The notes under the pieces are model-generated. The model saw only the letters and a list, made by a program, of their open reading frames with translations, had not been told where the DNA came from and did no database searches. From positions 15,815 through 79,814 of the forward strand of contig JANQFW010000089.1 in assembly GCA_028277625.1 (NCBI GenBank): a DNA stretch of 64,000 nt, read 5' to 3'. The DNA comes from Candidatus Gastranaerophilales bacterium (lineage in GTDB: Bacteria > Cyanobacteriota > Vampirovibrionia > Gastranaerophilales > JANQFW01). The translations under genes and the position numbers were made by a program. Of the stretch, positions 22,483 to 64,000 are shown piece by piece (within the stretch, counting starts at the first letter, position 1; each line of letters opens with the position of its first letter).

Positions 22483-23595
22483 TTATTTAATCTGAACAGG
22501 CATAACCAAACATAAATAATCTTCATCACTGTCTGGTTTTATCAGAGCAGCAGCAAGAGGTTCACCCATTTCCAGCTTTATTTTTTCTGTATCTACAGCT
22601 TTTAAAGTATCAAGCATATATTTATAATTGAAAGCTATTAATATATCTTCACTATCGTATTCTATTTCCATTTGATCAGCAGAATCACCAAGGTCAGGTG
22701 TATCAGCAGAAAGATTTAAGATATTATTGTTAAAGTTTAACCTGATGATGTTAGTACGCTCATTGACCATTGTAGAGGTGCGCTCAAGAGCTAAGATAAA
22801 GTCTTCTCTGTTGATGAATGCACACTTTGCATAATCAGCAGGTATTAATTGTTGATATTTAGGGTATTGGCCGTCAAGAAGTCTGGAAGTTATAATTATA
22901 TCTTTAAAATTGAATAAAATCATTCCACTGTTTATTATAATATCAACATATTCAGCACTGCATGCAGCAACTAAACGGATAAACTCATTTAAGATTCGAG
23001 AAGGAATTATAACAGAATATTCTTGCTCAAGCTTGGTTTCTATGTTTTGAATGATTCTGGCAAGCCTATTTCCATCGGTGGCAGCCATTTCCAGGTATTC
23101 ATTTTTTATCAGGCAGAAGACCCCGCTTAAAACATTGTTTGAATCATAATCAGCTGTAGCAAAAGAAGTCTGCTTTATGGCTTTTAATAGAGGTTCAACA
23201 TTGAGGTTTATGGATTCTTCATACTCAGGATAAAGTAAGTCCGGAAATTCTGATGCAGGAATGCCAACTAAGTCAAACTTTGAGCGTGAACATTTTATCT
23301 GAGTATGATTAGTTTCAGAATCTAGTGTAAAGTTTACAGGTTTGTTTGGTAGTTTAGAAATAATTTCTGTAAGTTTTTTGGCAGGTAATGTAATACTTCC
23401 TGCATTCTCTACAGTTGCTTCTATTTTGGTTTCTATAGAGATGTCTAAGTCTGTTGCACAAAATTTTATTAAATTATTGTCTACAGTTTCTATTAAAATA
23501 TTAGCCAAAACTGGTTGAACACCTCTTATTGAGGTTGCTTTAGCTACATAGTTAATTCCAGCTTGTAATGTTTCTTTTTCAATAACAAATTTCAT
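22483..23595 (-). CDS. dnaN: DNA polymerase III beta sliding clamp
   Basis: 370 aa, DnaN-like over its full length (three-domain length, ...LANILIE.....L...ATDL...). Confidence 0.95.
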   Translation of the reverse strand: MKFVIEKETLQAGINYVAKATSIRGVQPVLANILIETVDNNLIKFCATDLDISIETKIEATVENAGSITLPAKKLTEIISKLPNKPVNFTLDSETNHTQIKCSRSKFDLVGIPASEFPDLLYPEYEESINLNVEPLLKAIKQTSFATADYDSNNVLSGVFCLIKNEYLEMAATDGNRLARIIQNIETKLEQEYSVIIPSRILNEFIRLVAACSAEYVDIIINSGMILFNFKDIIITSRLLDGQYPKYQQLIPADYAKCAFINREDFILALERTSTMVNERTNIIRLNFNNNILNLSADTPDLGDSADQMEIEYDSEDILIAFNYKYMLDTLKAVDTEKIKLEMGEPLAAALIKPDSDEDYLCLVMPVQIK

Positions 23596-23701
23596 ATCCC
23601 ATTTTTCCCCATTAAAAGTTAAATTTTCTTCTTTATTATTTATTACTTTCTATATAATTAATAAAAATATATAAAATTAGTAGTAGTAGGTAATACCTTT
23701 T

Positions 23702-23870
23702 ACTTGTAGAAAACTGATTGGAATTTAATAATATCTTATTTTTTACTTGTAGAAAAGTTGTTTAATACATGTTCAAAACTCGTATTCTTTTCTACAATCT
23801 AAAATTTGTCTACAAAGTCTTTCTACAAGCTTCTTATGTTTTTCTACAAGTTTTCTACAAGTTTTCTACA
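23702..23870. promoter_or_regulatory. DnaA-box cluster; core of candidate oriC (whole spacer 23596-24367)
   Basis: Eight 9-mers of the type TTTTCTACA. Reverse orientation: 23705-13 and 23748-56. Forward: 23788-96, 23806-14 (TTGTCTACA), 23819-27 (CTTTCTACA), 23840-48, 23851-59 and 23862-70. The last three are spaced exactly 11 bp apart. A 770-bp AT-rich non-coding spacer lies next to dnaN. Confidence 0.7.
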
Positions 23871-24367
23871 GAAAGATAAATCATTGTTTAATAAGCTTTT
23901 TTCTAATCAACCCTATTCATGATGGTTTTATTTATTCAAACATGTATTTATTCAGTATGATTAACATTCGAGGATACTCATACATGTAAATATTTATAAT
24001 TCCTTTATCTTGACTTGCTTAAACTTTGAGAATTATTGTCCTACATGTTTTTTTATTTTATTAGATACACAATTTTTTGTTCTTTCCATGTTTTTTATTT
24101 GTTGAAATCATGGAATTTAAATGATAATATTCTTCTCCTTTATTTAATTTGCTCAATATCCCTAATCTTTTAAGATACACATTTAAAGTTTTTACAAAGA
24201 TAACAGTCCCTAGTGTTCTTTGTACTTAGTCTGTTTTACATATCGGATTATACCATAGTTCACTGGCCTAAAAAGACTTATCTTAAGAAAACTTATCAAA
24301 TTGTTATATGAGAAATTATAAGGATTTATTATCCTCTATAAAGTTATTGTTATTTAAATTAGTCTTT

Positions 24368-24667
24368 TTATTGTTTAAAATCACTAGCTTTTACTGAGTG
24401 AACCCAGCGAGCAAAGTTTTGTTGTTCATAACTTAAGGCAAATTGATACAATGATTCTATCAGGCTTGCGCCTGATTTTGATTTACCTAAAAGCATGTAT
24501 GCACCAAATTTATTTTTTATAAGGGCTATTTCTTTATGAATGACCTTTTCTATATTGTTTTCAGGCTTTTTAGATAAAATATCTTTTATCCATCTTATCA
24601 ATATGATCACAGGAGGAATATCTGCTTGATAACTCCTTATATGTTTAGAAAATGCACTTATTATCAT
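24368..24667 (-). CDS. hypothetical protein
   Basis: 99-aa ORF. No family recognised. Confidence 0.4.
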   Translation of the reverse strand: MIISAFSKHIRSYQADIPPVIILIRWIKDILSKKPENNIEKVIHKEIALIKNKFGAYMLLGKSKSGASLIESLYQFALSYEQQNFARWVHSVKASDFKQ

Positions 24668-24744
24668 TGTTTTGATTTATTTTTTATTGAGTATATTACT
24701 CCTATAATACAATATTTTTTGCTTTTTTTTATTTTATACCTTAC

Positions 24745-27243: not shown

Positions 27244-27409
27244 GTTTTTTCTTTTTATTTTTAGTAATTACTGTTTAATTTTACTAAAACCACGTCATCT
27301 ATTCTATTGAGTTTTATTAATTTTTTGTTTTTTAAAAATAAAGTTTAATATCTTGTAATGTTTTTATAAAAACAAGCAATTTATTGAAAAAAATATACTT
27401 TATAATATT

Positions 27410-27476
27410 GGGTAAAGGATACACTATAAAAGGTAGGTTAAAATCAAGTTTTAGATGCGAAAGCATCTTTTTTTTT
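27410..27476 (+). ncRNA. candidate small RNA, family 1 copy B (about 67 nt)
   Basis: GCAATT (27376-81)-N19-TATAAT (27401-06), 5' end GGGTAAAGG (27410-18), hairpin AGATGC-GAAA-GCATCT (27453-68) plus T9. Opposite strand to both flanking genes. Confidence 0.5.
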
Positions 27477-28716: not shown

Positions 28717-31533
28717 ATGCAATTGAATATTCAAACTAATCAAGTAACTAATTTAAAAAATCGTTTAGCTTTTGGGAGTGTACAACAGAATCCAACCATC
28801 GCAGCGCAGAGTTTTAATGTACCAGCTCCGGCAGCTTATCAGGCTCCACCGGTTGATTATCAGAAAGCGTTGGCATTACCAGGTGGACCGATTAAGAATG
28901 CAGTTAATCAATATAATGTGCAACTTCAAAGTGGAGTACCACAAGGCACTCAATATAAAGAGGTAAGGTTAAATAAGCTAGTGAGTTCTCAAGATCTTGA
29001 TGCCGGTCAGAAGGCATTTTATGAGAAGTATAAGCTGAATCCTGATTTTAAAACTTTAATAGTTAAAGAAGATTATAACTATGCTGATGATAAGCTTGAT
29101 GCATTTAGGCTTGTAGAAGTTAAATTTAGCAATGATTATGATGAATCTTTAAAAAATATATTTGCTAATAAGATGAATGGGCAAGTAAAACCTAGAGAAA
29201 GACAATTAGTTGATAAGTTATTAACTATTGCAAATCAAAATCCTGCATCTTTTGCTGATGATCAAGCTAAACTTAGTAAGCTTAGTTCATTAACTCCTAA
29301 TACTAAAACTTTATTAAAGTATAAAGTTAAAGAATTTATGGAAAAAGAAATAGTTCCCCAATCCATGAATAATCATTTTAGGGCAGAAGTTCTAAAGCAG
29401 CAATCATATAATCAAAATGCTGCCCTAATACAGAGTTGTTTTGATAAGCCTAATGCCTGGACTGCAAAGTTAGCGCCACAAGGACAAGAACCCGTAACTA
29501 CTAAAGCAAAAATCAAGAACGTGAAAAATCTTTGTGATAGGATTGCCAAAAACCCTGATGATGCAAATACAATGTTTGTAATGTTCTTTGATAATGTGCT
29601 AAAGACTAAAAAAGCAATGAAGGCTAACAAAATTGATGCTAATACAACCATAGAAGATTATTACAACAGTTTACCTGATAATTGGCACAGAAATAGAAGC
29701 TGGTATTATACATACGTTAATAATTTTGGAACTGATAAAAACGGAAAAGGTGATTTTAAGACATTCACCAAGCAATTGAACTATCTTGATAAATTGGGTA
29801 TTAAGAACATGTTAATACTCCCTCATTATGCATCTCCACAAGGTGATGCAGGATATGACATTTCTGATTATCATGCATCAAAAGAGTTGGGTGGAGAAAA
29901 GGAGTTTGGTAATTTCTTGAAGGAAGCAACAAAGCGTAAGTTCGGTTTGACAACAGATTTAGTATTTAATCATACTTCAACTGAGCATGAGTGGTTTAAG
30001 AAGGCACAAGCTGGTGATCCTAAGTACTTCCAGTACTTTTTGAAGTGTTCACCTGATTGGGCGAAGAAAGATTTAGATAAATCATTACATATGCGAAATG
30101 GCAACTTAATGCTAGAGCTTCCAGAGAAAGATAAAAATGGAAATACAGTTGTATCTAGTAAGAACTTAAGTCCATTATTCCCAGATGTTGATAAGTCTAT
30201 ATGGTTGGATAAGCCGGTTAAGGGGTTAAATAAAAACGTACTATTCTATAAGACTTTCTATCCATTCCAAGTTGATTTAGATTTACAGAATCCTGACGTT
30301 ATAAATGAACTATATGACATTATTGGTTCGGAAGTTGCAAAAGGTGTGGCCGGTAAGAGACTTGATGCGGCAGCATACTTTATTAAGCAACCGGGAACTG
30401 AAAGTTATAGTTTGCCGCAGACAGATGCATTACAGCAGCTTTCTGCATCATACATGAAACATTTACATCCTAAGACAATCATTATACCTGAAGTTCTAAA
30501 GGGTAATGGTAAAGGCGATATATTCTTTGACTTTAGGGATCAGGCTAAGTTAAGAGAAATGAGTTACTTACATACATCTGCTCCTTTCTGGGAGACTTGG
30601 GATAAAAATAAGGATGCCTTATTAAACCCTAATAATAAGCAAGTTCCATTGGTTATCTTTGACCACCATGATGAAATATACATGAACCAGTTTGGTAAAA
30701 ATCAAGATGCAATGGAGAAGTTCTTAACCTCATCATTCAAGACAACTAATAAGCATGGTCAGCCAAAAGAGGTTGTACATGCTGATATGTATAAAGGTGG
30801 TGCTGCTGCCGGTGGTAGGATGGCAACCTGCGTTAATGAAGATTTAAGGCGTATTACTCAGGCATTCTTTAACCAGTTCATGATCCCTGGTGCACCTGCT
30901 ATTTATTATGGTTCTGAAATTGGAGCTACTAATAATAGAGAAAATATGGAAGTTAGAAAAGTTGAGCAGTATCAAATACTTAAGAGACTTTTAGGCCCTG
31001 AAAAAGTAGGTGAGGATGAAAGTATTACTCTGGATAAGTGTGCTGACCCTCGTGAGCTACAGAGAGGACCAATTGATGCCGCTAAATTTGATAAGGCAGA
31101 TAAAAGTCATTATCCTGCTATAGATACTATTAAAGAATTAAATAAACTTAGAGAAGAAAGATCCGCTTTAAGGTCTTATAATATAGAAAAACTTCAAGGT
31201 AATGACGATACATTATTTGCTATGATTAAGTATCCTGAGCAGGAGGCTAAATTGAACGATGGCTCTATTGAAAAACCTTTGGTTACTGTATCTAACCTTA
31301 ATGATTCTGAAAAAGTTGTTAAGATTCCTGTGAAACAAATTCAAAAAGCAATGAATGCTAATGGTAACGTTTCGTTTAAAACTTTATTCAAACTGGATAA
31401 TGAAACTAAAGGCGATCAGGTCGCTGTTAGTGTGTCTGATAAGCAGGAGCAAACACTTATCAGTAAGTCTAATGACTTTATCTCAGTGAAGCTTCACCCT
31501 TATAGCTCATTAATTTTAGAGCCAACTGTATAA
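28717..31533 (+). CDS. GH13 alpha-amylase-family enzyme (TreS/amylosucrase-like) with about 340-aa N-terminal extension
   Basis: All four GH13 regions are seen: DLVFNHTS, GKRLDAAAY (nucleophile D), IIPEV (acid/base E), FDHHDE. The first about 340 aa have no recognisable family. Confidence 0.8.
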   Translation: MQLNIQTNQVTNLKNRLAFGSVQQNPTIAAQSFNVPAPAAYQAPPVDYQKALALPGGPIKNAVNQYNVQLQSGVPQGTQYKEVRLNKLVSSQDLDAGQKAFYEKYKLNPDFKTLIVKEDYNYADDKLDAFRLVEVKFSNDYDESLKNIFANKMNGQVKPRERQLVDKLLTIANQNPASFADDQAKLSKLSSLTPNTKTLLKYKVKEFMEKEIVPQSMNNHFRAEVLKQQSYNQNAALIQSCFDKPNAWTAKLAPQGQEPVTTKAKIKNVKNLCDRIAKNPDDANTMFVMFFDNVLKTKKAMKANKIDANTTIEDYYNSLPDNWHRNRSWYYTYVNNFGTDKNGKGDFKTFTKQLNYLDKLGIKNMLILPHYASPQGDAGYDISDYHASKELGGEKEFGNFLKEATKRKFGLTTDLVFNHTSTEHEWFKKAQAGDPKYFQYFLKCSPDWAKKDLDKSLHMRNGNLMLELPEKDKNGNTVVSSKNLSPLFPDVDKSIWLDKPVKGLNKNVLFYKTFYPFQVDLDLQNPDVINELYDIIGSEVAKGVAGKRLDAAAYFIKQPGTESYSLPQTDALQQLSASYMKHLHPKTIIIPEVLKGNGKGDIFFDFRDQAKLREMSYLHTSAPFWETWDKNKDALLNPNNKQVPLVIFDHHDEIYMNQFGKNQDAMEKFLTSSFKTTNKHGQPKEVVHADMYKGGAAAGGRMATCVNEDLRRITQAFFNQFMIPGAPAIYYGSEIGATNNRENMEVRKVEQYQILKRLLGPEKVGEDESITLDKCADPRELQRGPIDAAKFDKADKSHYPAIDTIKELNKLREERSALRSYNIEKLQGNDDTLFAMIKYPEQEAKLNDGSIEKPLVTVSNLNDSEKVVKIPVKQIQKAMNANGNVSFKTLFKLDNETKGDQVAVSVSDKQEQTLISKSNDFISVKLHPYSSLILEPTV

Positions 31534-31702
31534 ACTGAGTAATAAAAACTTTTTATTATGTATTAAACTCATGCGAGAATTTAAGTAGTAAAAGATGTAG
31601 AACCTTTTATTCCTTACTTCCTTTGGTGTGTATTAATAAAAAAATAAAAAACATTTAAAAAGAATGGCAATTTTTCTTATGTATATAACTTTATATATAT
31701 AA

Positions 31703-31842
31703 GATAGGTAAAACGTTAAGATAGAGTATAAGTAGTATAACAAAAGACTTTCAACCAATATGTAAACCTATATATTAACCTACACACTTGCTAAAATCTT
31801 TAAACCATTCTTCTTGTTTTTATTTAACAAGAAGTTTTTTTT
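31703..31842 (+). ncRNA. candidate small RNA, family 2 copy A (about 140 nt)
   Basis: GCAATT (31667-72)-N19-TATATA (31692-97). 21-nt core ACCTACACACTTGCTAAAATC (31778-98) is identical to the minus strand of 54734-54. Terminator CTTCTTGTT/AACAAGAAG (31810-34) plus T8. Confidence 0.5.
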
Positions 31843-32338
31843 GTAAAGAAAAAGTCCCTTTTTTTTATTATTTTAAAGTTTTTTGGACTTTAAAAACTTG
31901 ATATGCTATATCTGTAATTATTATATATTTTAACATGTTTTCTAATGTTTTATAGAATTTATAGAGGTTTGCTGCATGATTTTACTGTATTTATTAATTA
32001 AAATATTTAAAATTTAAATAATCCAGGATTTATTCTTTATGTATTTGATCCTTTGCGTTATAATAATTATTGGTTTTTCTACATGTTATATTTAAAGAAA
32101 AATAATAATAAAACATATATTATAAATATTAGTGTTTATAATATATAACATTATCGATAGCTAACTTAAAACTTGTAAAGTATTGCTGGTTAATATTTAA
32201 AGGTTTTGCTTAGCTTTTAAGGTTACGAGTCAAGCCTGTTTATGCACTTTTTTAGTAGTTTTTGTTTTTTAATATATAATGAAGGTTAGTGTGTGATTAT
32301 TAGGTAAATTTATAAAAAGATAATTAAGGGTAGTTTCA

Positions 32339-37164: not shown

Positions 37165-38271
37165 GTGGATTTTGTTGCAATAACAGTTGAATTTTTAAAA
37201 TTTCTGGCTAACTTAACCGGAAGTTACGGACTGGGAATAGTACTGTTTACTTTAGTTATTAGGGCTGCGATGTGGCCACTAAGTTTTTCTCAGCAGAAAA
37301 GTATGAAAAAAATGCAGGAGCTAGCTCCTAAGTTGAAACAGCTACAAGCAAGATATAAAAGTGATCCTCAGGCTATGCAAATGAAAATGATGGAGTTTTA
37401 TAAAGAACATAAGTTTAATCCGCTTGGTGGTTGCGTTCCATTAATGGTACAAATGCCTATATTTATTTTGCTTTATGCGGCTTTGATAAGTCCTCAGTTT
37501 ATGGATTTATCTGGTAATTCATCTTTTATGTTTATAAATAAACTAAGTTCAACTTTAAGAGATAGAGCTGGTGTTGTTGGTGATGCTACGTTTGCTGTAG
37601 AAAGACAAGATCGGTTTGTTCTTGATAAGCATGTTAAGGTTTATTTGAAAGACGGGAAAACTCTTGATAATGCAATAATACTTAATGAAAAGAAAGCTAT
37701 AGATAAGCCTGAGCAGATTATTCCAGGACAAACTGTTAAGTTTGGTATTAGCTTAAGCAATTTGGATTTACCTTATGAAGAGTTAGGTAAAGTCGAAAAA
37801 GCTGATATTACTGTAATAAACGAAAATACCAAGGAAATTGAGCATATAACTTTTAAAGTTAAAGATTCTAAATTGTCTGCTGATATAAAAACTGAAAAAG
37901 TTGAAACAAAGTTTAATTATGATGTTTTAACTTTAATTATATTGTTCGCGGTAACTATGATGATTACTCAAAAGATAATGAGTAAAATGTCTAATACTGC
38001 AGCTATGGATCCTATGCAAAAGAACATGCAAGAAAAAATGGCTAAAATTATGCCTGTGGCAATAGTTGTTCCTTTGGTATTTATCCCAATACCTGCGGGT
38101 GTGTTCTTATACTTTGTGGTTAGCAATGTCTTCCAGATAGCGCAAACAGTTATAATAAATAAACAGTTGGATGCTGCCAGTAAGGCAAGTGGTCCTGACG
38201 TTATACAAGCAGAAACTGTTGAAAAAAAAACTCTAAATAATGATAATCATCAAAAAATTAGTCATAAATAG
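37165..38271 (+). CDS. yidC: membrane protein insertase YidC/Oxa1 family, with about 130-aa insertion
   Basis: GLGIVLFTLVIRAAMWPLS..Q.KSM.KMQ.L.P....L..RYK.D.......M.EFYKEHK.NP..GC.P...Q.PIF..LY is the YidC core. GTG start. Confidence 0.9.
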   Translation: MDFVAITVEFLKFLANLTGSYGLGIVLFTLVIRAAMWPLSFSQQKSMKKMQELAPKLKQLQARYKSDPQAMQMKMMEFYKEHKFNPLGGCVPLMVQMPIFILLYAALISPQFMDLSGNSSFMFINKLSSTLRDRAGVVGDATFAVERQDRFVLDKHVKVYLKDGKTLDNAIILNEKKAIDKPEQIIPGQTVKFGISLSNLDLPYEELGKVEKADITVINENTKEIEHITFKVKDSKLSADIKTEKVETKFNYDVLTLIILFAVTMMITQKIMSKMSNTAAMDPMQKNMQEKMAKIMPVAIVVPLVFIPIPAGVFLYFVVSNVFQIAQTVIINKQLDAASKASGPDVIQAETVEKKTLNNDNHQKISHK

Positions 38272-38273
38272 TT

Positions 38274-39659
38274 ATGAATTACATTATTAATGATACAATA
38301 GCAGCAATTGCAACGCCTCTTGGTACAGGAGGTGTTGCTGTTATTAGGATAAGTGGTGAAAAAGTTTTTGATATTATTTCAGAAATTTTTTCTTTGAGCT
38401 TAAAGAATAAAAAATTACCTGACTTTGAGGCTAATAAAATATATTATGGTTGGATAAAAGATAATGATAATCTGATTGATCAAGTATTATTATTATTATT
38501 TAGAGGGCCTAAGAGTTTTACTGGCGAAGATGTTATAGAAATTCATTGCCATGGTGGGATTAATGTAACTAAGAATATTCTGCAACTTTGTTTGAATGCT
38601 GGTGCAAGATCGGCAACGCGTGGAGAATTTAGTAAACGAGCTTTTTTGAATGGGAAGATGGGCTTGACTGAGGCTGAGGCTATACTAGATATTATTCATT
38701 CGCGCACAGATAAGTTTTCTCAGATTTCTGCTTATAATTTATCAGGGAAGTTATCTTTTTATATAAAAGAGATAAAAAGTGAGGTTATAAACCTTTTGTC
38801 AGAGGTTATAGCTGCTCTTGATTTTTCTGAGGAGGTTGATGAGCCTGAATATAGCTATATAGTAGAGCGTATAAATGATATTGTTGTTAAGATTAACAAT
38901 GTTTTAAGGTCTTCTAATAATTCTAACTTAATGAGGCAGGGTTTGAAAGTGGCCATAGCTGGCAAGCCTAATGTTGGTAAATCTTCGTTATTTAACACTT
39001 TATTGGATATACAGAGGGCCATTGTTACTGATATTGCTGGGACTACTCGTGACATTATTCAAGAATCTTTAGATGTGGATGGTATTCCTGTTACATTGAT
39101 AGATACTGCTGGTATTCGAGAATTGGAAAATGAAACACATAGTGATCAAATTGAATCTATTGGTATAAATATTGCTAAAGATCATATACAAAGCGCGGAT
39201 ATAGTTTTATTTTTGTATGACTTGACTAAAGGTATGCAGGAGCAAGATATTGATATTTTTTCTGAAATAAAAGATAAGCCAGTAATAAAAGTGGGGTCTA
39301 AGGTTGATCTGATTGATAACCTTGATAAATTGGTGCAGCAAGATGGGCATGATTGTATGATATCAACAAAAACCCGTGAGGGAATTGAGACTGTGAAACA
39401 AAAAATAAAAGAACTAGTATTATCTGCAAATGATATTGATAATAGTGAGTATGCTACAAATATTAGGCATCAGGAGTGTTTATTTAATGCTAAAAAATCA
39501 TTATTACTGGCTGTTGATTCTTGCCAAAACTATGCACCTCAGGATTTTGTATCTATAGATTTGAAGGCTGCACTGTTGTCTCTTGATGAGATAACAGGAG
39601 AGGTTGTTACTGAAGAAATTTTAGACAATATTTTTTCTAATTTCTGTATTGGTAAGTAG
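38274..39659 (+). CDS. mnmE: tRNA modification GTPase MnmE
   Basis: 461 aa. G-domain motifs GKPNVGKSSLFN and DTAGIR, and the characteristic C-terminal CIGK. Confidence 0.95.
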   Translation: MNYIINDTIAAIATPLGTGGVAVIRISGEKVFDIISEIFSLSLKNKKLPDFEANKIYYGWIKDNDNLIDQVLLLLFRGPKSFTGEDVIEIHCHGGINVTKNILQLCLNAGARSATRGEFSKRAFLNGKMGLTEAEAILDIIHSRTDKFSQISAYNLSGKLSFYIKEIKSEVINLLSEVIAALDFSEEVDEPEYSYIVERINDIVVKINNVLRSSNNSNLMRQGLKVAIAGKPNVGKSSLFNTLLDIQRAIVTDIAGTTRDIIQESLDVDGIPVTLIDTAGIRELENETHSDQIESIGINIAKDHIQSADIVLFLYDLTKGMQEQDIDIFSEIKDKPVIKVGSKVDLIDNLDKLVQQDGHDCMISTKTREGIETVKQKIKELVLSANDIDNSEYATNIRHQECLFNAKKSLLLAVDSCQNYAPQDFVSIDLKAALLSLDEITGEVVTEEILDNIFSNFCIGK

Positions 39660-53226: not shown

Positions 53227-54522
53227 ATGGAAAAGTTTACAGGCTTTATTGGTATTTTTATAATTTTGGGCTTAGCCTTTTTGCTCTCTAATAACAGGAA
53301 AGCTATAAACTATAAACTTGTAGTAACAGGATTGTTACTGCAAAGTATACTAGCAATTTTTATTTTAAAAGTACCGTTGGGACAGCTAATTTTTAAGAAG
53401 TTAGCTGATTTTATTAATCTTATTTTGGATTTTTCTGATAAGGGGTCAGAATTTGTTTTTGGGCCGTTAATGCAAAAAGAATTATTAGTTAAAGCTTTTG
53501 GTGAAGGTAATGACTTTGTGTTTATATTTAAGGTATTGCCTACAATTGTTTTTATTACTTCATTGGTTAGTATTTTATATCATTATGGGGTTATTCAAAA
53601 ACTAATCAGTGTTGTTGCCAAGATCGTACACAGGCTGATGCATGTAAGCGGAAGTGAAGCTCTTTCTAATATATCAAGTGTTTTTGTTGGTCAGGTTGAA
53701 GCTCAAATACTTATAAAGCATTATGTCCCTACTATGACAAAGTCAGAGCTATTGGCTTCTATGTCTGGTAGCTTGGCATGTATTGCTGGTGGTGTAATGG
53801 CTGTATACATAGGATTGGGAATACCTGCTGAGTATTTGTTGACAGCAAGTGCTATGGCTATACCCGGGGCCTTGGTTATATCAAAAATAGTTTACCCTGA
53901 GACTGAAGAATCTAAAACAAAAGACTCTATTACCTTGGACGTTGAAAAAAACACTGTGAATTTTGTAGATGCGATTGCACATGGAGCAAGTGAAGGGTTG
54001 AAAATATCACTAAATGTAGTTGCAATGATAATTTCTTTTATTGCTATTGTGAAAATGGTTGATTATTTTATTGGGTTCACTGGTACTGTTTTTGCAAATA
54101 TGGGAATTTCATTAGGATTTATTGGACTTGATATAAATAGTTTAAGTTTGAAAGATATATTTGGTTCTATATTTTCTTTAGTTGCCTGGACAATGGGTGT
54201 ACCTTGGGCAGATGCTCATACTGTGGGCTCTTTAATGGGAACGAAGTTAGTTATAAATGAATTTGTAGCATACTTAGATTTAATGCCTATTATTAGTGGT
54301 TCAACTAATGTTTTACTTTCTGATAAGTCTATTTTGATTTCAACATTTGCTTTGTGCGGATTTGCAAACTTTGGATCTGTTGCGGTTCTTGTTGGTGGTA
54401 TTGGTCAGTTGGCTCCAAATAGAAGGCAAGATATTGCAAGGTTAGGCTTTAAAGCTCTTATTTGCGGGACTATGGCATCTTATTTGTCAGCAACAATCGC
54501 AGGAATATTAGGGTCTTTTTAA
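53227..54522 (+). CDS. nupC: NupC-family concentrative nucleoside transporter
   Basis: 431-aa polytopic protein with CNT motifs (..SEALSNISSVFVGQVEA.., ..CGFANFGSVAVLVGGIGQLAPNRR..). Confidence 0.9.
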   Translation: MEKFTGFIGIFIILGLAFLLSNNRKAINYKLVVTGLLLQSILAIFILKVPLGQLIFKKLADFINLILDFSDKGSEFVFGPLMQKELLVKAFGEGNDFVFIFKVLPTIVFITSLVSILYHYGVIQKLISVVAKIVHRLMHVSGSEALSNISSVFVGQVEAQILIKHYVPTMTKSELLASMSGSLACIAGGVMAVYIGLGIPAEYLLTASAMAIPGALVISKIVYPETEESKTKDSITLDVEKNTVNFVDAIAHGASEGLKISLNVVAMIISFIAIVKMVDYFIGFTGTVFANMGISLGFIGLDINSLSLKDIFGSIFSLVAWTMGVPWADAHTVGSLMGTKLVINEFVAYLDLMPIISGSTNVLLSDKSILISTFALCGFANFGSVAVLVGGIGQLAPNRRQDIARLGFKALICGTMASYLSATIAGILGSF

Positions 54523-54692
54523 CGGATTTAATGTAAACAACTATATTAAGAGAAAGTTAACTATATCCTGTCTTGCTAAAAAAAATACAAGAATAAAGGC
54601 TTATTTATGGACTGTACCGTTTCAGTTTTAACTAGATAGCTTCTAATATTTAAGCTCTTATTGTAAAAACATATATGACTATTGGTTAATAC

Positions 54693-54797
54693 AAAAAAAA
54701 CTTCTTGTTGGGTGAAACAAGAAGGGAATTAAGGATTTTAGCAAGTGTGTAGGTAGTATATATAATATGGTTTTATTGGAGTTTTGTTGTATCTTAT
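54693..54797 (-). ncRNA. candidate small RNA, family 2 copy B (about 100 nt)
   Basis: Minus strand: GCAATT (54826-31)-N19-TATATA (54801-06), 21-nt core (54734-54) identical to copy A, terminator CTTCTTGTT/AACAAGAAG (54701-24) plus T8 (54693-700). Confidence 0.5.
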
Positions 54798-54981
54798 GTA
54801 TATATAAAGTTATTTACTTTAAAAAAATTGCTTAATTTAAAAAAAAATTTTGATTAGTGCTTTCTAATTTTTAATAAAAAAATGGTGATGTATTTAACAA
54901 CATCACCTGTTTGGTATTTTCCGCCTTTGTGTTTGCCTTATGGTCTCTTCTTCCAATATTTAATTAAATATTTTTAGATAA

Positions 54982-55335
54982 TTATATCATTATGCTAAGT
55001 CTTGTTCCTGTTGTTGAACCAAATGTCGATCTATTATCTACGATTTTAACAATTGTTTCTAAATTCTCTCTTAATCTTTTAGCATCTTTATTTAAGTGTT
55101 CGACTTTATTTTTTTTGCCACTATCAACCAAGCTTGTAAGCTTATTGATTGCTTTTTCTAATATCTTATTCTCGTTATTATCATCCCTGTGGGCAAATGG
55201 TTTTAATGGGTAACCAACCGGTGTGTATCCAAAACCTATATTCTTTTTAGGTTGGCTTAAAGGGGAATTATTATTTGTTTTGTTTATATTATAATTGAAT
55301 TTATTATTATCTATATTGTTTATATTATTCATCAT
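54982..55335 (-). CDS. hypothetical Asn-rich protein
   Basis: 117-aa ORF with a low-complexity N-terminus. No family recognised. Confidence 0.4.
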   Translation of the reverse strand: MMNNINNIDNNKFNYNINKTNNNSPLSQPKKNIGFGYTPVGYPLKPFAHRDDNNENKILEKAINKLTSLVDSGKKNKVEHLNKDAKRLRENLETIVKIVDNRSTFGSTTGTRLSIMI

Positions 55336-55992
55336 TATTACTTTCCTCCAGTTACTGGAATTTTCATATTGGTATTATTAATTGCTTCGTTGTTTTTTGT
55401 AGTTTTCTCTGTTTTTTATTAGACATTAGTGACCTCTTTTTTAATAGTGTTTTATTTACACTTTATCTTGCTATTATTAAGTATTATGCAAAATGTGATT
55501 TTTGTCAACCCTTTTAAAAAAAAATTATTTTTATGTTTTTGTATACCTTGCTATAGCTGCTTATTAGAGGTTATAAAGTTTTTATAAAATTAGTTACGGT
55601 GTCAAAAAAAATATAAAGTGATAGTGATAAAATTAGGGAAATATATTTGTAAGATATATTTGTTTTTATTTTTAGTCTAACTGATTTAAATTAGTTTTTT
55701 ATTAGTTTATTCAAAAAAATTTTATTTATGTTTTTATTATATGTAAAATATATAATAAAGGCTCTTTTTCTACTTTTTTGGAAAATACATTTCTATATAA
55801 TGATATGTTAATAACCTATTAAATTATTTTAAAATGTTTTTTGTATTTTGCCGGGTTAGAAATAGATTAAGCGATAGTATAGATAGGTAATTCAATCCAA
55901 TATGCTTTTTATTTATTTTAAGAATAAGCCGCGCTGGTTAGCTTAAAGTCTATCTTTTGAAAGTTTATTTTGGATTGATAAGGATTTGCTAG

Positions 55993-57297
55993 ATGATAAT
56001 AAAAAAAATTATAATAATCTTTTTTATTTATAGTTTTTTTGTTTTTATACCTTCGACATTTGCGCAAATATCTAAATTGCTTTTTTTAAGCCAAGTTATT
56101 CAATCAGCAATCAGTAATAATTCTGAAATATTATCAGAAAGTTCTCGTTTGGATGTAAGTCGCGCTGAAATACTCTCAGCATCTGTGCTGGAAAATCCAT
56201 TTTTTACATTTGATAGCAACCTTGTAGAAAATAGTTTTGATTTTGGAGTACAGAGGATATTTGAAACAGGCGGATTGAAAGATAAAAGGGTAGATATAGC
56301 AACAACCAGGCATAAACTGGATTTAATAAATTTAGAATTGAAAAAGTTCGAATTAAAAAATAAGGTAAGAGCAGCTTACACAAAACATTATGTGAATCAG
56401 GAAAAATTAAAAAATTTTCGAGAATTATTGGGCTTTGTAAAAAATTTGCTTAAAAAAAAGGATATAAAAGATGTAATAAGATTCCAAGGGGAAGTTGTTT
56501 TATTAGAAATAGAACATAATATAGATAAAGCTGAACTGACAATCAGTCAATCTGATATGAATCTGGAAAAATTAATAGGGAAATCAATAGTAGAAAAGGA
56601 TTTAAGTCTTCATCCTCCAGATTCAGTGCCAGCGGCTTTAAAGCCTTTTGTCAACAAAAATTTTAGTAACCTTGAATATATACCAGTTCAATATATAAAA
56701 GCTTTTGCTTTAAGAAATAGACTTGAATTTAAGAAAATGCTAGAATTTATTAAGCTTTCAGAAAATCAAAAAAGATTAGCCCTTGCTAAAAGGTGGCCAT
56801 TGGTTTTATTAGAGGTAGGAGCAACGGTTAATTTTAATGAAAAAAAATCAAGACCTTTTTTTTCTGCAAACATTGAGCTCCCTTTGCTGGATAGGGATGA
56901 AGCTGAAATAGCAGCTGCAGATGCAAAAAAAGATCACTATAAAAAAACGTTAGAAATATTAAGAAGTAAAATTGATATAGAAGTTCAAGATGCATACCAA
57001 ACATTTAAGCTTAGTAAAAAGAGATTTGATCGATTTGAGCATTCTATTAAGCCAGAAGCAATAAGACACATAGAAAAATTAAGAGAAGAATATGACAATG
57101 AAGATATTTCCTTGATAGATAGGATAGGGGTAGAAAAATCAGTCTTGGAAATTTTGAATACATATTATGATGCATTGATTGATTATCAAACTTCCATAAT
57201 TGAACTTGATAAGGCAGTAGGAGTATTTAAGCTTTCTCCTTTATCAAAAAATGCTTTATATAATAGAGTCCCCGCTTTGAATAATCCAGGACAATAA
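55993..57297 (+). CDS. TolC-like outer membrane efflux protein
   Basis: 434 aa. Signal peptide. Two OEP-type repeats (..L.QVIQSAISNNSEIL......L.V.RAE...A...). Confidence 0.7.
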   Translation: MIIKKIIIIFFIYSFFVFIPSTFAQISKLLFLSQVIQSAISNNSEILSESSRLDVSRAEILSASVLENPFFTFDSNLVENSFDFGVQRIFETGGLKDKRVDIATTRHKLDLINLELKKFELKNKVRAAYTKHYVNQEKLKNFRELLGFVKNLLKKKDIKDVIRFQGEVVLLEIEHNIDKAELTISQSDMNLEKLIGKSIVEKDLSLHPPDSVPAALKPFVNKNFSNLEYIPVQYIKAFALRNRLEFKKMLEFIKLSENQKRLALAKRWPLVLLEVGATVNFNEKKSRPFFSANIELPLLDRDEAEIAAADAKKDHYKKTLEILRSKIDIEVQDAYQTFKLSKKRFDRFEHSIKPEAIRHIEKLREEYDNEDISLIDRIGVEKSVLEILNTYYDALIDYQTSIIELDKAVGVFKLSPLSKNALYNRVPALNNPGQ

Positions 57298-57413
57298 TAA
57301 ATAAAAAAGTAAAAAAGAAAGAAGATGTCTGTGATATATACTTATTATGTAAAGATATTGTAATAAATTATATTAAAAATGAAATCAAGGTTTTTTTTTT
57401 GTTTTTATATATG

Positions 57414-57466
57414 TGGGTGAAACAAAGGAAAATTAAGTAAAGTGTAATAAAGCTAAGTGTGTAGGT
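57414..57466. repeat. degenerate third copy of the family 2 element
   Basis: GGGTGAAACAA..GGAAAATTAAG...GCTAAGTGTGTAGGT aligns with 54710-54754 (GGGTGAAACAAGAAGGGAATTAAGGATTTTAGCAAGTGTGTAGGT). The minus-strand terminator half is lost. Confidence 0.45.
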
Positions 57467-57544
57467 AATAATAAAGAATTTTAATAATAATCTTCCTTAA
57501 ACTAAACTGACTCTTTTTTAAACTGGTAATGTACTAATAGTGCG

Positions 57545-57572
57545 GGTTCTTCGAAAAAGAACCTTTTTTTTT
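57545..57572 (+). terminator. rho-independent terminator
   Basis: GGTTCTT-CGAAA-AAGAACC followed by T9. Confidence 0.7.
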
Positions 57573-57597
57573 GCCAAAATTTCAATATTTAAATAAT

Positions 57598-57963
57598 TTA
57601 AAATGGAAAACCCGGGACAGCCAATTTAACCCCTTCAATTATATGTTCATAACCCTCTATATTCATAATATCTTTTGAACAGGTTATTTGGACTGGCATG
57701 TTTTTTTCAGCTTTTTTATAAGAAATTTTAACATTAAAAGCTTTTTCAAATACAGCCTGAGGGGCAGAAATAGAAAGAGTTAGGCCTTTAGCCTCAATTT
57801 TAAACCCTTGTTCTTGCAGTAGTTCAATTGCTTTGCTGATAGTTTCATCGCTAGCAAAATAGGGTTCTGGATTTGATATAGGATTAGTGCTATTTAAAAG
57901 CGAATGGCCAGACTTTGATTTTAAATAAACATTTGCCATTATAATATTATTCTTTTCATTCAT
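57598..57963 (-). CDS. stand-alone protease-prodomain-like protein (paralog of the N-terminus of the adjacent S8 peptidase)
   Basis: From ATG 57963 (AAGGA RBS): MNEKNNIIMANVYLKSKSGHSLL...ISKAIELLQEQGFKIEAKGLTLSISAPQAVFEKAFNVKI...IIEGVKLAVPGFPF. This aligns with MTNEKVMASVAFKTRSGMSLF...LIDILKQEGFEIESQTDVGVSFSGPRELFETSFRTKV...YAEAIKLAIPGIPF of 58054-60753. Confidence 0.6.
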   Translation of the reverse strand: MNEKNNIIMANVYLKSKSGHSLLNSTNPISNPEPYFASDETISKAIELLQEQGFKIEAKGLTLSISAPQAVFEKAFNVKISYKKAEKNMPVQITCSKDIMNIEGYEHIIEGVKLAVPGFPF

Positions 57964-62316: not shown

Positions 62317-62400
62317 GGCAATTTAGAAATTGTTTTTGTTTTTATAATATTGTGAGATAAGTGAGAGCCAAAGTGGGTATAATTATTATTTAATTTGTGT
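62317..62400 (+). repeat. duplicated promoter/leader block, copy 1
   Basis: GGCAATTTAGAAATTGTTTTTGTTTTTATAATATTGTGAGATAAGTGAGAG...GGGTATAATT aligns with 63116-63200. Contains GCAATT (62318-23)-N19-TATAAT (62343-48). Confidence 0.6.
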
Positions 62401-62505
62401 TCAAAAAATGTAAAATTTAAATAATTATCCAACTGTAACATTTTTAAGCTTTTATTTATTTTTTGTAAAGATGAGGTAGTTTTAAAAGGTGTAGGAGGTA
62501 CACAA

Positions 62506-62916
62506 ATGGCAGTATCAGGTATGAATTCTGGACGTACTTACTCTGGAGAGGTTATGGATTTTTTAAAAGGAGGATTTAAGGATAAAAAAGCTTTGTTTGG
62601 TCAGGCGAAAGATTTTATAGCGTTAAAAGATACAGATAAAAATGGAACGATTTCAAAGGAGGAAGCCTTATTTAAAACTAAAGGCAAGATGCAACATGAT
62701 ATAGAAAAAATGTTTAAAAGAGTTGACCTGGATAAAGATGGTGAGCTTGATTATAAAGAGCTGGCATCCTTCAAGTTTTCGGCAGATGTAGATAGAAATA
62801 ATAATGTTACTAATAAAGAAGCGACAAATGCTTATGATGTTTCGATTGATGGTAAAGAAGGCTTTGTTAAAAATATATTAAGAAGTGCTTATACTCTTTT
62901 GGATTTAGGCTCTTAG
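62506..62916 (+). CDS. EF-hand calcium-binding protein
   Basis: Three canonical 12-residue loops: DTDKNGTISKEE, DLDKDGELDYKE, DVDRNNNVTNKE. GTAGGAGG RBS. Confidence 0.75.
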   Translation: MAVSGMNSGRTYSGEVMDFLKGGFKDKKALFGQAKDFIALKDTDKNGTISKEEALFKTKGKMQHDIEKMFKRVDLDKDGELDYKELASFKFSADVDRNNNVTNKEATNAYDVSIDGKEGFVKNILRSAYTLLDLGS

Positions 62917-63115: not shown

Positions 63116-63200
63116 GGCAATTTAGAAGTTTATTTTGTTTTTATAATATTGTAAGGTAGTGAGGATTAAATATGGTATAATTGGTATTCAGCTTGTGTAT
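63116..63200 (+). repeat. duplicated promoter/leader block, copy 2
   Basis: GGCAATTTAGAAGTTTATTTTGTTTTTATAATATTGTAAGGTAGTGAGG...TGGTATAATT. Contains GCAATT (63117-22)-N19-TATAAT (63142-47). A weak AAGCTT/AAGCTT hairpin plus T8 follows at 63231-63259. Confidence 0.6.
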
Positions 63201-63319
63201 TAAAGAAAATAAATAATAAGTAAAGTTAGTAAGCTTGAAATATTTTTAAGCTTTTTTTTATTAATTTTGCATATATTTGACTTTTAAAAAGTGAATCTTA
63301 ATAGATAGGAGTTTTTAGT

Positions 63320-64000
63320 ATGTTAACTGGTATTTCTTTGGATAAAGGTAGGATACAAAAAGCATTCAAGGTCGTTGAAAATAATTTTGATTATTTTGAC
63401 ACAGTAGGAGGAGGAGAAGAGGATAGTGTATTTAATCTTTCTAGTATAGCAGTTGCAGCAATAGATGAAAATGCAGATAAAAGTATTAAAGAAGCTGCAA
63501 TGATTCTCTTAAGTAATCAGTACTTTTTAAACTCTTTCCTGAATGAAAAAAAAGAAAAATATCCTATAAAAGAAGATGTAGAGGGGATGTTAGACTTATA
63601 TTTGACTGATTGGTATTTTAATATTTCAGATGAAGAGGACGGTAAGCGAGACGGTAAAATTCATAAGTCTGTTATGCCCAAGAATCCATTTAATAGTGCT
63701 ACTTCTAACGATGATGTCTACAAGGGGGGGGGCTTTTCTCAAGAAATGCTTGATGATATAAGCAAGGATGATGATTATATAACAAAAGATGAATTGTTAA
63801 TGTTTGAAAAATCATTGAGAGGGTTTAGTAAACATGACATCGAAAATTTTGATAAGTCGTTCTCTAAACATATTAGTGATGGAAAAGTGGAAAGTTTAAT
63901 AGGATATAACCATTTTGCAACGGCACTAGTTGCTCTTAATGATAAGTCTATAGGTAAAAAAATTATTAAGGAATCTATAAAAAGAGGTGAAGGAGGATTT
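63320..64000 (+). CDS. hypothetical acidic protein with degenerate EF-hand-like loops (partial, runs off the right edge)
   Basis: ATG at 63320 after a GGAG RBS. I read 227 codons to the window end with no stop. Absent from the ORF track because no stop is reached. Contains a G9 run at 63724-63732. Confidence 0.5.
   Translation, partial: MLTGISLDKGRIQKAFKVVENNFDYFDTVGGGEEDSVFNLSSIAVAAIDENADKSIKEAAMILLSNQYFLNSFLNEKKEKYPIKEDVEGMLDLYLTDWYFNISDEEDGKRDGKIHKSVMPKNPFNSATSNDDVYKGGGFSQEMLDDISKDDDYITKDELLMFEKSLRGFSKHDIENFDKSFSKHISDGKVESLIGYNHFATALVALNDKSIGKKIIKESIKRGEGGF

Follow-up and report, generated by a model that had tools for sequence, protein, structure and literature searches.

A candidate family of sibling small RNAs and a complementary element in Candidatus Gastranaerophilales

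Genomic setting of units A and B

The window, which is the whole stretch of 64,000 nucleotides that was analysed, has a G+C content of ~31% and appears to span the replication-origin region of this Candidatus Gastranaerophilales genome. The genes dnaN (22483-23595, minus strand), rpmH-rnpA-yidD (28342-27507, minus strand) and yidC-mnmE (37165-39659, plus strand) were present. The cumulative GC-skew minimum was located at ~26-28 kb of the window, and a gene-free stretch of 1149 bp (23596-24744) contained TTTTCTACA, which is close to the cyanobacterial DnaA box. Between rpmH and yidC, a GH13 gene, unit A and three genes without Pfam matches were inserted. ORFs of at least 100 aa left ~22% of the window uncovered, a non-coding share that is unusually high for a small AT-rich genome. 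Many spacers were 300-1100 bp long, and several of them carried blocks conserved between species. No tRNA was called anywhere in the window.

The GH13 gene at 28717-31533 matched Pfam Alpha-amylase. An initial annotation had placed copy A in a gene-free spacer of ~800 bp after this gene, and the spacer was measured as 805 ORF-free bp (31534-32338). Copy A (31666-31842, plus strand) was a non-coding unit with a promoter-like block and a terminator. Copy B (54693-54831, minus strand) had four parts in common with it. Between the GH13 stop and the terminator of copy A, no other terminator was found. The terminator of copy A is thus the probable end of GH13 transcripts too.

Four parts common to the two units

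The two units had been described as having a promoter block, a start, a 21-mer and a terminator stem in common. Reading and alignment recovered all four parts at both loci. The promoter-like block of copy A, GGCAATT-N19-TATATA, was located at 31666..31699 on the plus strand, with GCAATT-N19-TATATA itself at 31667-31697. The corresponding block of copy B was at 54798..54832 on the minus strand, with the motif at 54831-54801. The start motif ATAAGATA followed 1-3 nt after the promoter block in both copies, at 31699-31706 (+) in copy A and at 54797-54790 (-) in copy B. A transcript of copy A would begin near ATAAGATA and is predicted to cover 31699..31842 on the plus strand (~140 nt). The predicted transcript of copy B covers 54693..54797 on the minus strand (~105 nt), with the terminator as its only structure.

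The 21-nt core ACCTACACACTTGCTAAAATC, which is the candidate seed, was located at 31778..31798 (+) in copy A and at 54734..54754 (-) in copy B. These were two exact copies in the window against 0.01 expected, and 0 of 100 shuffles gave two. A third copy was absent from the window even with up to 3 mismatches allowed. The intrinsic terminator of copy A (31810..31842 on the plus strand, called at 31810-31834) consisted of a 9-bp stem, the loop TTTATTT and T8. That of copy B (54693..54724 on the minus strand, called at 54724-54701) had the same stem and T8 with the loop TCACCC. Both loci were thus called as terminators with the stem CTTCTTGTT/AACAAGAAG and differing loops, as had been proposed. 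The 20-mer AACAAGAAGTTTTTTTTGTA, which comprises the 3' arm of the terminator and the tail, was exact in both copies. Overall, copies A and B were 66% identical, and they were identical across the core and the stem.

A recurrent promoter architecture

The reading of the upstream block as a promoter was examined by its recurrence. The window had 5 sites of GCAATT-N19-TATAWW where 0.33 were expected (15-fold), and none of 100 shuffles reached 5. All five sites were intergenic, namely A, B, 27376 (+), 62318 and 63117. The 62318 and 63117 sites preceded genes, and a terminator was found within 70-140 nt after three of the five (A, B and 27376). TTTATATAT occurred 10 times in the window, 9 of them intergenic, and several of these preceded genes, among them GH13 and dnaN, by 70-230 nt. 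The block of copy A was kept in the A orthologs at the loci of the relatives (L002 and L004), and the block of copy B was kept in the B copies of species 3 (L003) and species 2 (L013). A scan for sigma-70 consensus promoters left the blocks of A and B uncalled, because their -10, TATATA, does not end in the canonical T. The block is therefore not a canonical sigma-70 match. The recurrence of GCAATT-N19-TATAWW and TTTATATAT indicated a recurrent promoter architecture of this organism, which supported the promoter reading.

Other readings of the block were rejected. By eye, sigma-54 and FliA readings of the GGCAAT block lacked the -12 GC and the GCCGATAA motif and were not conserved. An NtcA-like GTA-N8-TAT overlapping the -10 was not conserved in two of the copies.

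The other sites of this architecture were inspected in their own right. At 27376-27476 (+), GCAATT-N19-TATAAT with a canonical TATAAT was followed by ~65 nt (GGGTAAAGGATACAC...GGTAGGTTAAAATC...) and by a strong terminator, GATGCGAAAGCATC + T9. This unit was located between a proB-like gene and yidD and was antisense to neither. It was conserved in species 2 (L009, 8591-8690) and deleted in species 3. From its sequence, it is another sRNA candidate. The units at 62318-62505 (+) and 63117-63321 (+) had near-identical promoters, GCAATTTAGAA..TTTTGTTTTTATAATATTGT.AG, with a counterpart in species 2 (L013, 5456-5777). Conserved leaders followed these promoters, upstream of the genes at 62506-62916 and from 63322 onward. 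The 63117 leader carried an AAGCTT...AAGCTT-T8 terminator before the start codon. These leaders are possibly attenuator-type leaders or sRNAs, and they are perhaps the 'Family 1' of the initial annotation.

Non-coding nature of the units

The absence of an ORF had been proposed for the units, and this was borne out. No ORF of at least 18 aa was conserved across the copies on either strand, and indels between the copies broke every reading frame. With Rfam release 15, the whole window gave 0 matches at the gathering threshold. Permissive E-values gave noise only, with E of at least 2 around A and one match at E=0.83 over 54500-57700 that was unrelated to B.

Several known classes were considered and rejected. 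For a cis-regulatory leader or riboswitch, there was no conserved downstream gene in the same orientation. Copy B was followed by a convergent transporter gene. For copy A, the next gene was 500-740 nt away in two species, and a convergent, unrelated gene was found in the third. A dispersed repeat of the MITE or REP type was rejected on copy number, with only 2-3 copies per genome, all syntenic, and none further in 183 kb. The units were flanked only by A/T-rich low-complexity inverted repeats, and they had no common terminal inverted repeats. The features of sibling sRNAs, namely at least two paralogs per genome with an identical accessible pairing region and a divergent remainder, were found in the family.

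Species range and conservation

An exact scan was performed with 20 bases of the core against one genome per species, covering 185,579 species. It gave 3 loci in two MAGs, both labelled Candidatus Gastranaerophilales. All four copies at these loci carried the promoter block, the ATAAGATA start and the terminator. It had been raised at the outset that the 21-mer might belong to a widespread genomic repeat unrelated to promoters and terminators. The scan did not bear this out, with only 3 loci in all these species and the same promoter block and terminator at each. With the window included, the family comprised 7 copies in 3 species at syntenic sites. Each of the three species had an A copy and a B copy, and species 3 had B in tandem. 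The tandem copies were 94% identical to each other, and the promoter block was duplicated with them.

The core was identical in 6 of the 7 copies across the three species. The invariance that had been claimed for the 21-mer was thus exact for A and B of the window, but the orthologous B in one relative read ACCTACACACACTTGCTAAAATC, with an extra AC. This was the B copy of species 2 (L013, ACCTACACACACTTGC...), which was also cut off by the contig end. The exact scan missed it because of the extra AC, so that exact scans underestimate the range of the family.

When 241 million metagenome records were scanned with an 18-mer, there were 4 matches, all of them chance matches without the flanking CC, the promoter block or the terminator. 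No copies were found in viral contigs, phages or plasmids. A covariance model of the core and terminator gave no further copies in 183 kb of the window and loci, including the distant Melainabacteria locus L012. The GH13 protein of the window was 84% and 78% identical to those of the two MAGs, and the next relatives reached at most 46%. Hence all known members of the family come from three species, which belong to a single genus-level clade.

The gene neighbourhoods were also conserved. A-type copies directly followed the GH13 stop in all three species. B-type copies followed a poorly conserved ORF of 117-119 aa (ORF117) and the terminator of that ORF, and they adjoined a divergent gene for a TolC-like outer-membrane efflux protein (OEP). 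ORF117 had no detectable homolog beyond itself, and a search with the OEP protein gave no relatives beyond the two already known. The A and B units were 76-90% identical between species with gaps counted, and the core and stem were ~100% identical. For comparison, the four-fold degenerate sites of GH13 were 50-63% identical between the three species. The spacer between the GH13 stop and copy A was unalignable between species. That the units were more alike than the GH13 four-fold sites was counted as support for purifying selection on A and B.

A further conserved block, element D, was observed at 54876-54948 on the minus strand, between the ORF117 stop and copy B. Its 48 nt, AGAGACCATAAGGCAAACACAAAGGCGGAAAATACCAAACAGGTGATG, were identical in the three species and were followed by a strong terminator, GGTGATG...CATCACC with a T-run. 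Element D was far more conserved than the ORF upstream. It gave no Rfam match, and it showed no complementarity to A, B or C (described below) above that of shuffles. Possibly it is an sRNA derived from a 3'UTR, or else a structured element of another kind.

The positions of the units raised an alternative explanation. A and B could be cis-acting 3'-end modules, consisting of 3'UTR and terminator, of GH13 and ORF117, in which the core would be a site for stability, processing or protein binding. In all three species, A and B lie directly downstream of a gene and share its orientation, and no terminator separates the GH13 stop from A; both points would agree with this explanation. However, a strong conserved terminator at 54907-54884 stands between ORF117 and B, and in one species B was duplicated in tandem together with its promoter block. 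In addition, the upstream block is an enriched promoter architecture, which also stood before genes and before another small unit. We consider 3'-end modules improbable as the explanation, and independent transcription of the units as small RNAs is preferred.

Predicted RNA structure

The initial annotation had described the core as unpaired. This was supported by prediction for the B-type RNAs, in which the unpaired probability of the core was 0.88-0.96 (0.96 for B of the window), but the value was only 0.48-0.60 for the A-type RNAs. The B-type RNAs were predicted to fold into the terminator only. The A-type RNAs had a 5' extension (31699-31745, plus strand) with an internal TAAGATAG duplication (TAAGATAGGTAAA...TAAGATAGAGTATAAGTAG), which was absent from the B-type. 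Weak pairing between this extension and the core is possible, and the consensus fold, in which the two pair, had -8.7 kcal/mol and showed no compensatory changes. It is a speculative reading of the modelled fold that the 5' extension of the A-type could be a self-masking domain. The terminator stem was 100% paired and never varied among the copies. Since the stem is invariant, covariation says nothing for or against the structure.

Element C, a candidate partner of the core

To look for possible partners of the core, duplexes of the 21-mer with both strands of the whole window were scanned. The best site, apart from two self-antisense sites, was 57431-57470 on the plus strand, with -23.1 kcal/mol (z ~-6.7). 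The mean over the window was -5.3 kcal/mol (sd 2.65), and the next-best site had -18.0. This site belonged to element C (57381..57573, plus strand), which was located 2.6 kb from B, on the downstream side of the TolC-like OEP gene, and was conserved in all three species. Element C began with a promoter-like GAAATC-N19-TATATA (57381-57411, +). The segment TGGGTGAAACAA followed at 57414-57425 (+) and was antisense to the 5' arm and loop of the terminator of B. The anti-core AGCTAAGTGTGTAGGT was at 57451-57466 (+), and a terminator at 57544-57573 (+) lay ~80 nt downstream of it. The colinear duplex of B with C(+) extended over 61 nt with -45.9 kcal/mol, against -22.8 (sd 4.5) for shuffles.

The complementarity was compared between the species. 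C(+) was also the top non-self site for the core in species 3 (L003), with -22.5, and the complementarity was weaker in species 2. Both flanks of C were strongly conserved, and the middle was otherwise divergent. When the variable middle was paired with the core in the three species, 0/1000, 1/1000 and 16/1000 shuffles reached the observed energy. On the minus strand, C and B had two exact 12-mers in common, ACCTACACACTT and TTGTTTCACCCA, whose order was the same in both and whose spacing was similar (41 nt against 34 nt). By these two 12-mers, C is a relic paralog of the sRNA gene. Because C is homologous to B, its complementarity to the core may be partly inherited and not selected, on a comparison of three species only.

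The strands of C differed in their transcription signals. The minus strand lacked a promoter block as well as the 3' arm and the T-run. When the promoter form was relaxed to include GAAATC-N19-TATATA, 7 sites were found in the window against 1.12 expected, and the T-rich -10 context of the promoter-like motif of C closely resembled that of the 62318 and 63117 units. Downstream of the OEP gene, only one intrinsic terminator was found, on the plus strand beyond C, in all three species. Since the plus strand has both ends of a transcription unit, a plus-strand RNA with the anti-core is expected. Judged from these signals, C(+) RNA would be either the 3'UTR of OEP or a separate RNA of ~160 nt. A type I toxin-antitoxin system was rejected, with no conserved ORF of at least 18 aa in the units and, by eye, ORFs of at most 7 aa in C(+).

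Candidate targets among the mRNAs of the window were also searched. None of the 5'UTR or RBS regions of ~50 window genes stood out as a target of the core. The best 5' region was that of the 62506 gene, and this was not conserved in species 2 (L013). Recurring pairing matches inside the GH13 coding sequence and antisense to a flagellar gene were judged to reflect chance or coding conservation. C(+), as the OEP 3' region or as an anti-sRNA, might be the physiological partner of A and B, and the complementarity makes this possible while we regard it as doubtful.

The lack of an outstanding mRNA target bears on a second alternative, in which the RNAs are real and act by binding or sequestering a protein or as structural RNAs. 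The invariant stretch would then be a protein-recognition site. The invariance of both the sequence and the stem and the several copies per genome are consistent with such a role, as is the lack of an RBS target that stands out in the window. However, repeated short motifs of the CsrB/RsmZ type were absent, B had no structure beyond the terminator, and a strong conserved complementary partner was located 2.6 kb away. A protein-binding or structural role is accordingly viewed as quite improbable, and pairing with other RNAs is favoured over it. Least credible of all, at a very small probability, is a DNA-level element that was merely duplicated (a transcription-factor operator, a recombination site or a relic of a mobile element): the strongest conservation does take in the untranscribed upstream block and C is an example of a copy that decayed and was put to new use, but the unit is oriented with a unidirectional intrinsic terminator, lacks common terminal inverted repeats, stays at 2-3 copies per genome at fixed syntenic sites with none further in 183 kb, and was not found in phage, plasmid, viral or metagenome collections.

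Proposed model

Taken together, we consider it probable that A and B are real, selected and independently transcribed small RNAs, going by their architecture and conservation. In our model, they would be paralogous ('sibling') genes for trans-acting sRNAs in a single genus-level clade of Candidatus Gastranaerophilales (Melainabacteria/Vampirovibrionia). Each unit would be transcribed from its own promoter of the GCAATT-N19-TATAWW type, and each RNA would end at its Rho-independent terminator, giving ~140 nt for A and ~105 nt for B. The C/A-rich stretch of 21-26 nt just 5' of the terminator is most likely a seed that would pair with other RNAs. On balance, we lean towards action by base pairing through the core, with less assurance than we have for the existence of the RNAs.

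C(+) RNA, as the 3'UTR of the OEP mRNA or as a separate sRNA, may pair with the core and the 5' arm of the terminator of A and B. The module would then be a pair of sRNA and anti-sRNA (sponge), or it would place the OEP transcript under sRNA control. The most inclusive form of the model joins these parts. In it, A, B and C would form a conserved sRNA/anti-sRNA module, the antagonist or regulated OEP 3'UTR would have arisen from a relic sRNA gene that is read in the opposite direction, and all the units, together with those like 27376-27476, would form one GCAATT-N19-TATAWW regulon. As a whole, this combination is tentative and rather unlikely to be right in every part.

Melainabacteria and Gastranaerophilales are uncultured, non-photosynthetic gut relatives of cyanobacteria. 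A literature search found no paper that describes a regulatory RNA in either group. A and B represent a well-delimited sRNA family that is open to comparative testing, with paralogs, a recognisable promoter type and a candidate partner beside an efflux gene. The promoter type may define a small-RNA regulon. Element C and the common promoter architecture add value to the finding, which thereby becomes a testable small regulatory module. If the model is correct, it would give a first handle on post-transcriptional control in the Gastranaerophilales lineage, and it would exemplify an anti-sRNA that originated in a relic of an sRNA gene. The general impact is moderate, because a seed with a terminator and the sibling layout are textbook features and the family is confined so far to three MAG species.

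Comparison with known systems

A and B appear to be a new sRNA family, and their layout is of a familiar type. Qrr1-5 of Vibrio, OmrA/OmrB of E. coli, PrrF1/2 of Pseudomonas and the csRNAs of Streptococcus are sibling sRNAs with a common promoter and an identical seed. Like these families, A and B have several paralogs, some of them in tandem, a common promoter architecture, an identical pairing region with a variable remainder, and an intrinsic terminator. However, Qrr, OmrA/B, PrrF and the csRNAs showed no sequence or covariance-model similarity to A and B, and they belong to a different phylum.

The Gastranaerophilales lineage is the sister group of Cyanobacteria, and Yfr1 of photosynthetic cyanobacteria was the closest analogy, as A and B likewise carry a conserved C/A-rich stretch 5' of the terminator. 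Yfr1 is an RNA of 54-69 nt with two stem-loops flanking an unpaired region of 16-20 nt. This region holds the ultraconserved unpaired undecamer 5'-ACUCCUCACAC-3', which is C/A-rich, ends in CACAC and lies just 5' of the Rho-independent terminator (PMC2190773). Between the motifs of Yfr1 and Yfr2 there is near-complementarity, and Yfr2 binds Yfr1 and blocks its target binding (PMC6778093). This crosstalk is the relationship that we propose for A/B and C(+). In contrast, the undecamer ACUCCUCACAC was not found anywhere in the window at up to 1 mismatch, and the core of A and B reads ACCUACACACUUGC. Unlike Yfr1, A and B are ~140 and ~105 nt long, B has no 5' hairpin, and there are 2-3 paralogs per genome. 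Yfr1 was not matched in the Rfam searches of the window either. By sequence, size and fold, A and B do not belong to this family.

For C(+), the comparison class consists of sRNA sponges or anti-sRNAs and of 3'UTR-derived sRNAs. Like these, the candidate C(+) RNA, for which the OEP 3'UTR is a possible origin, would be complementary to a trans-encoded sRNA over an extended segment. In contrast to this class, the complement in C appears to go back to a relic of the sRNA gene itself, of which the opposite strand is read.
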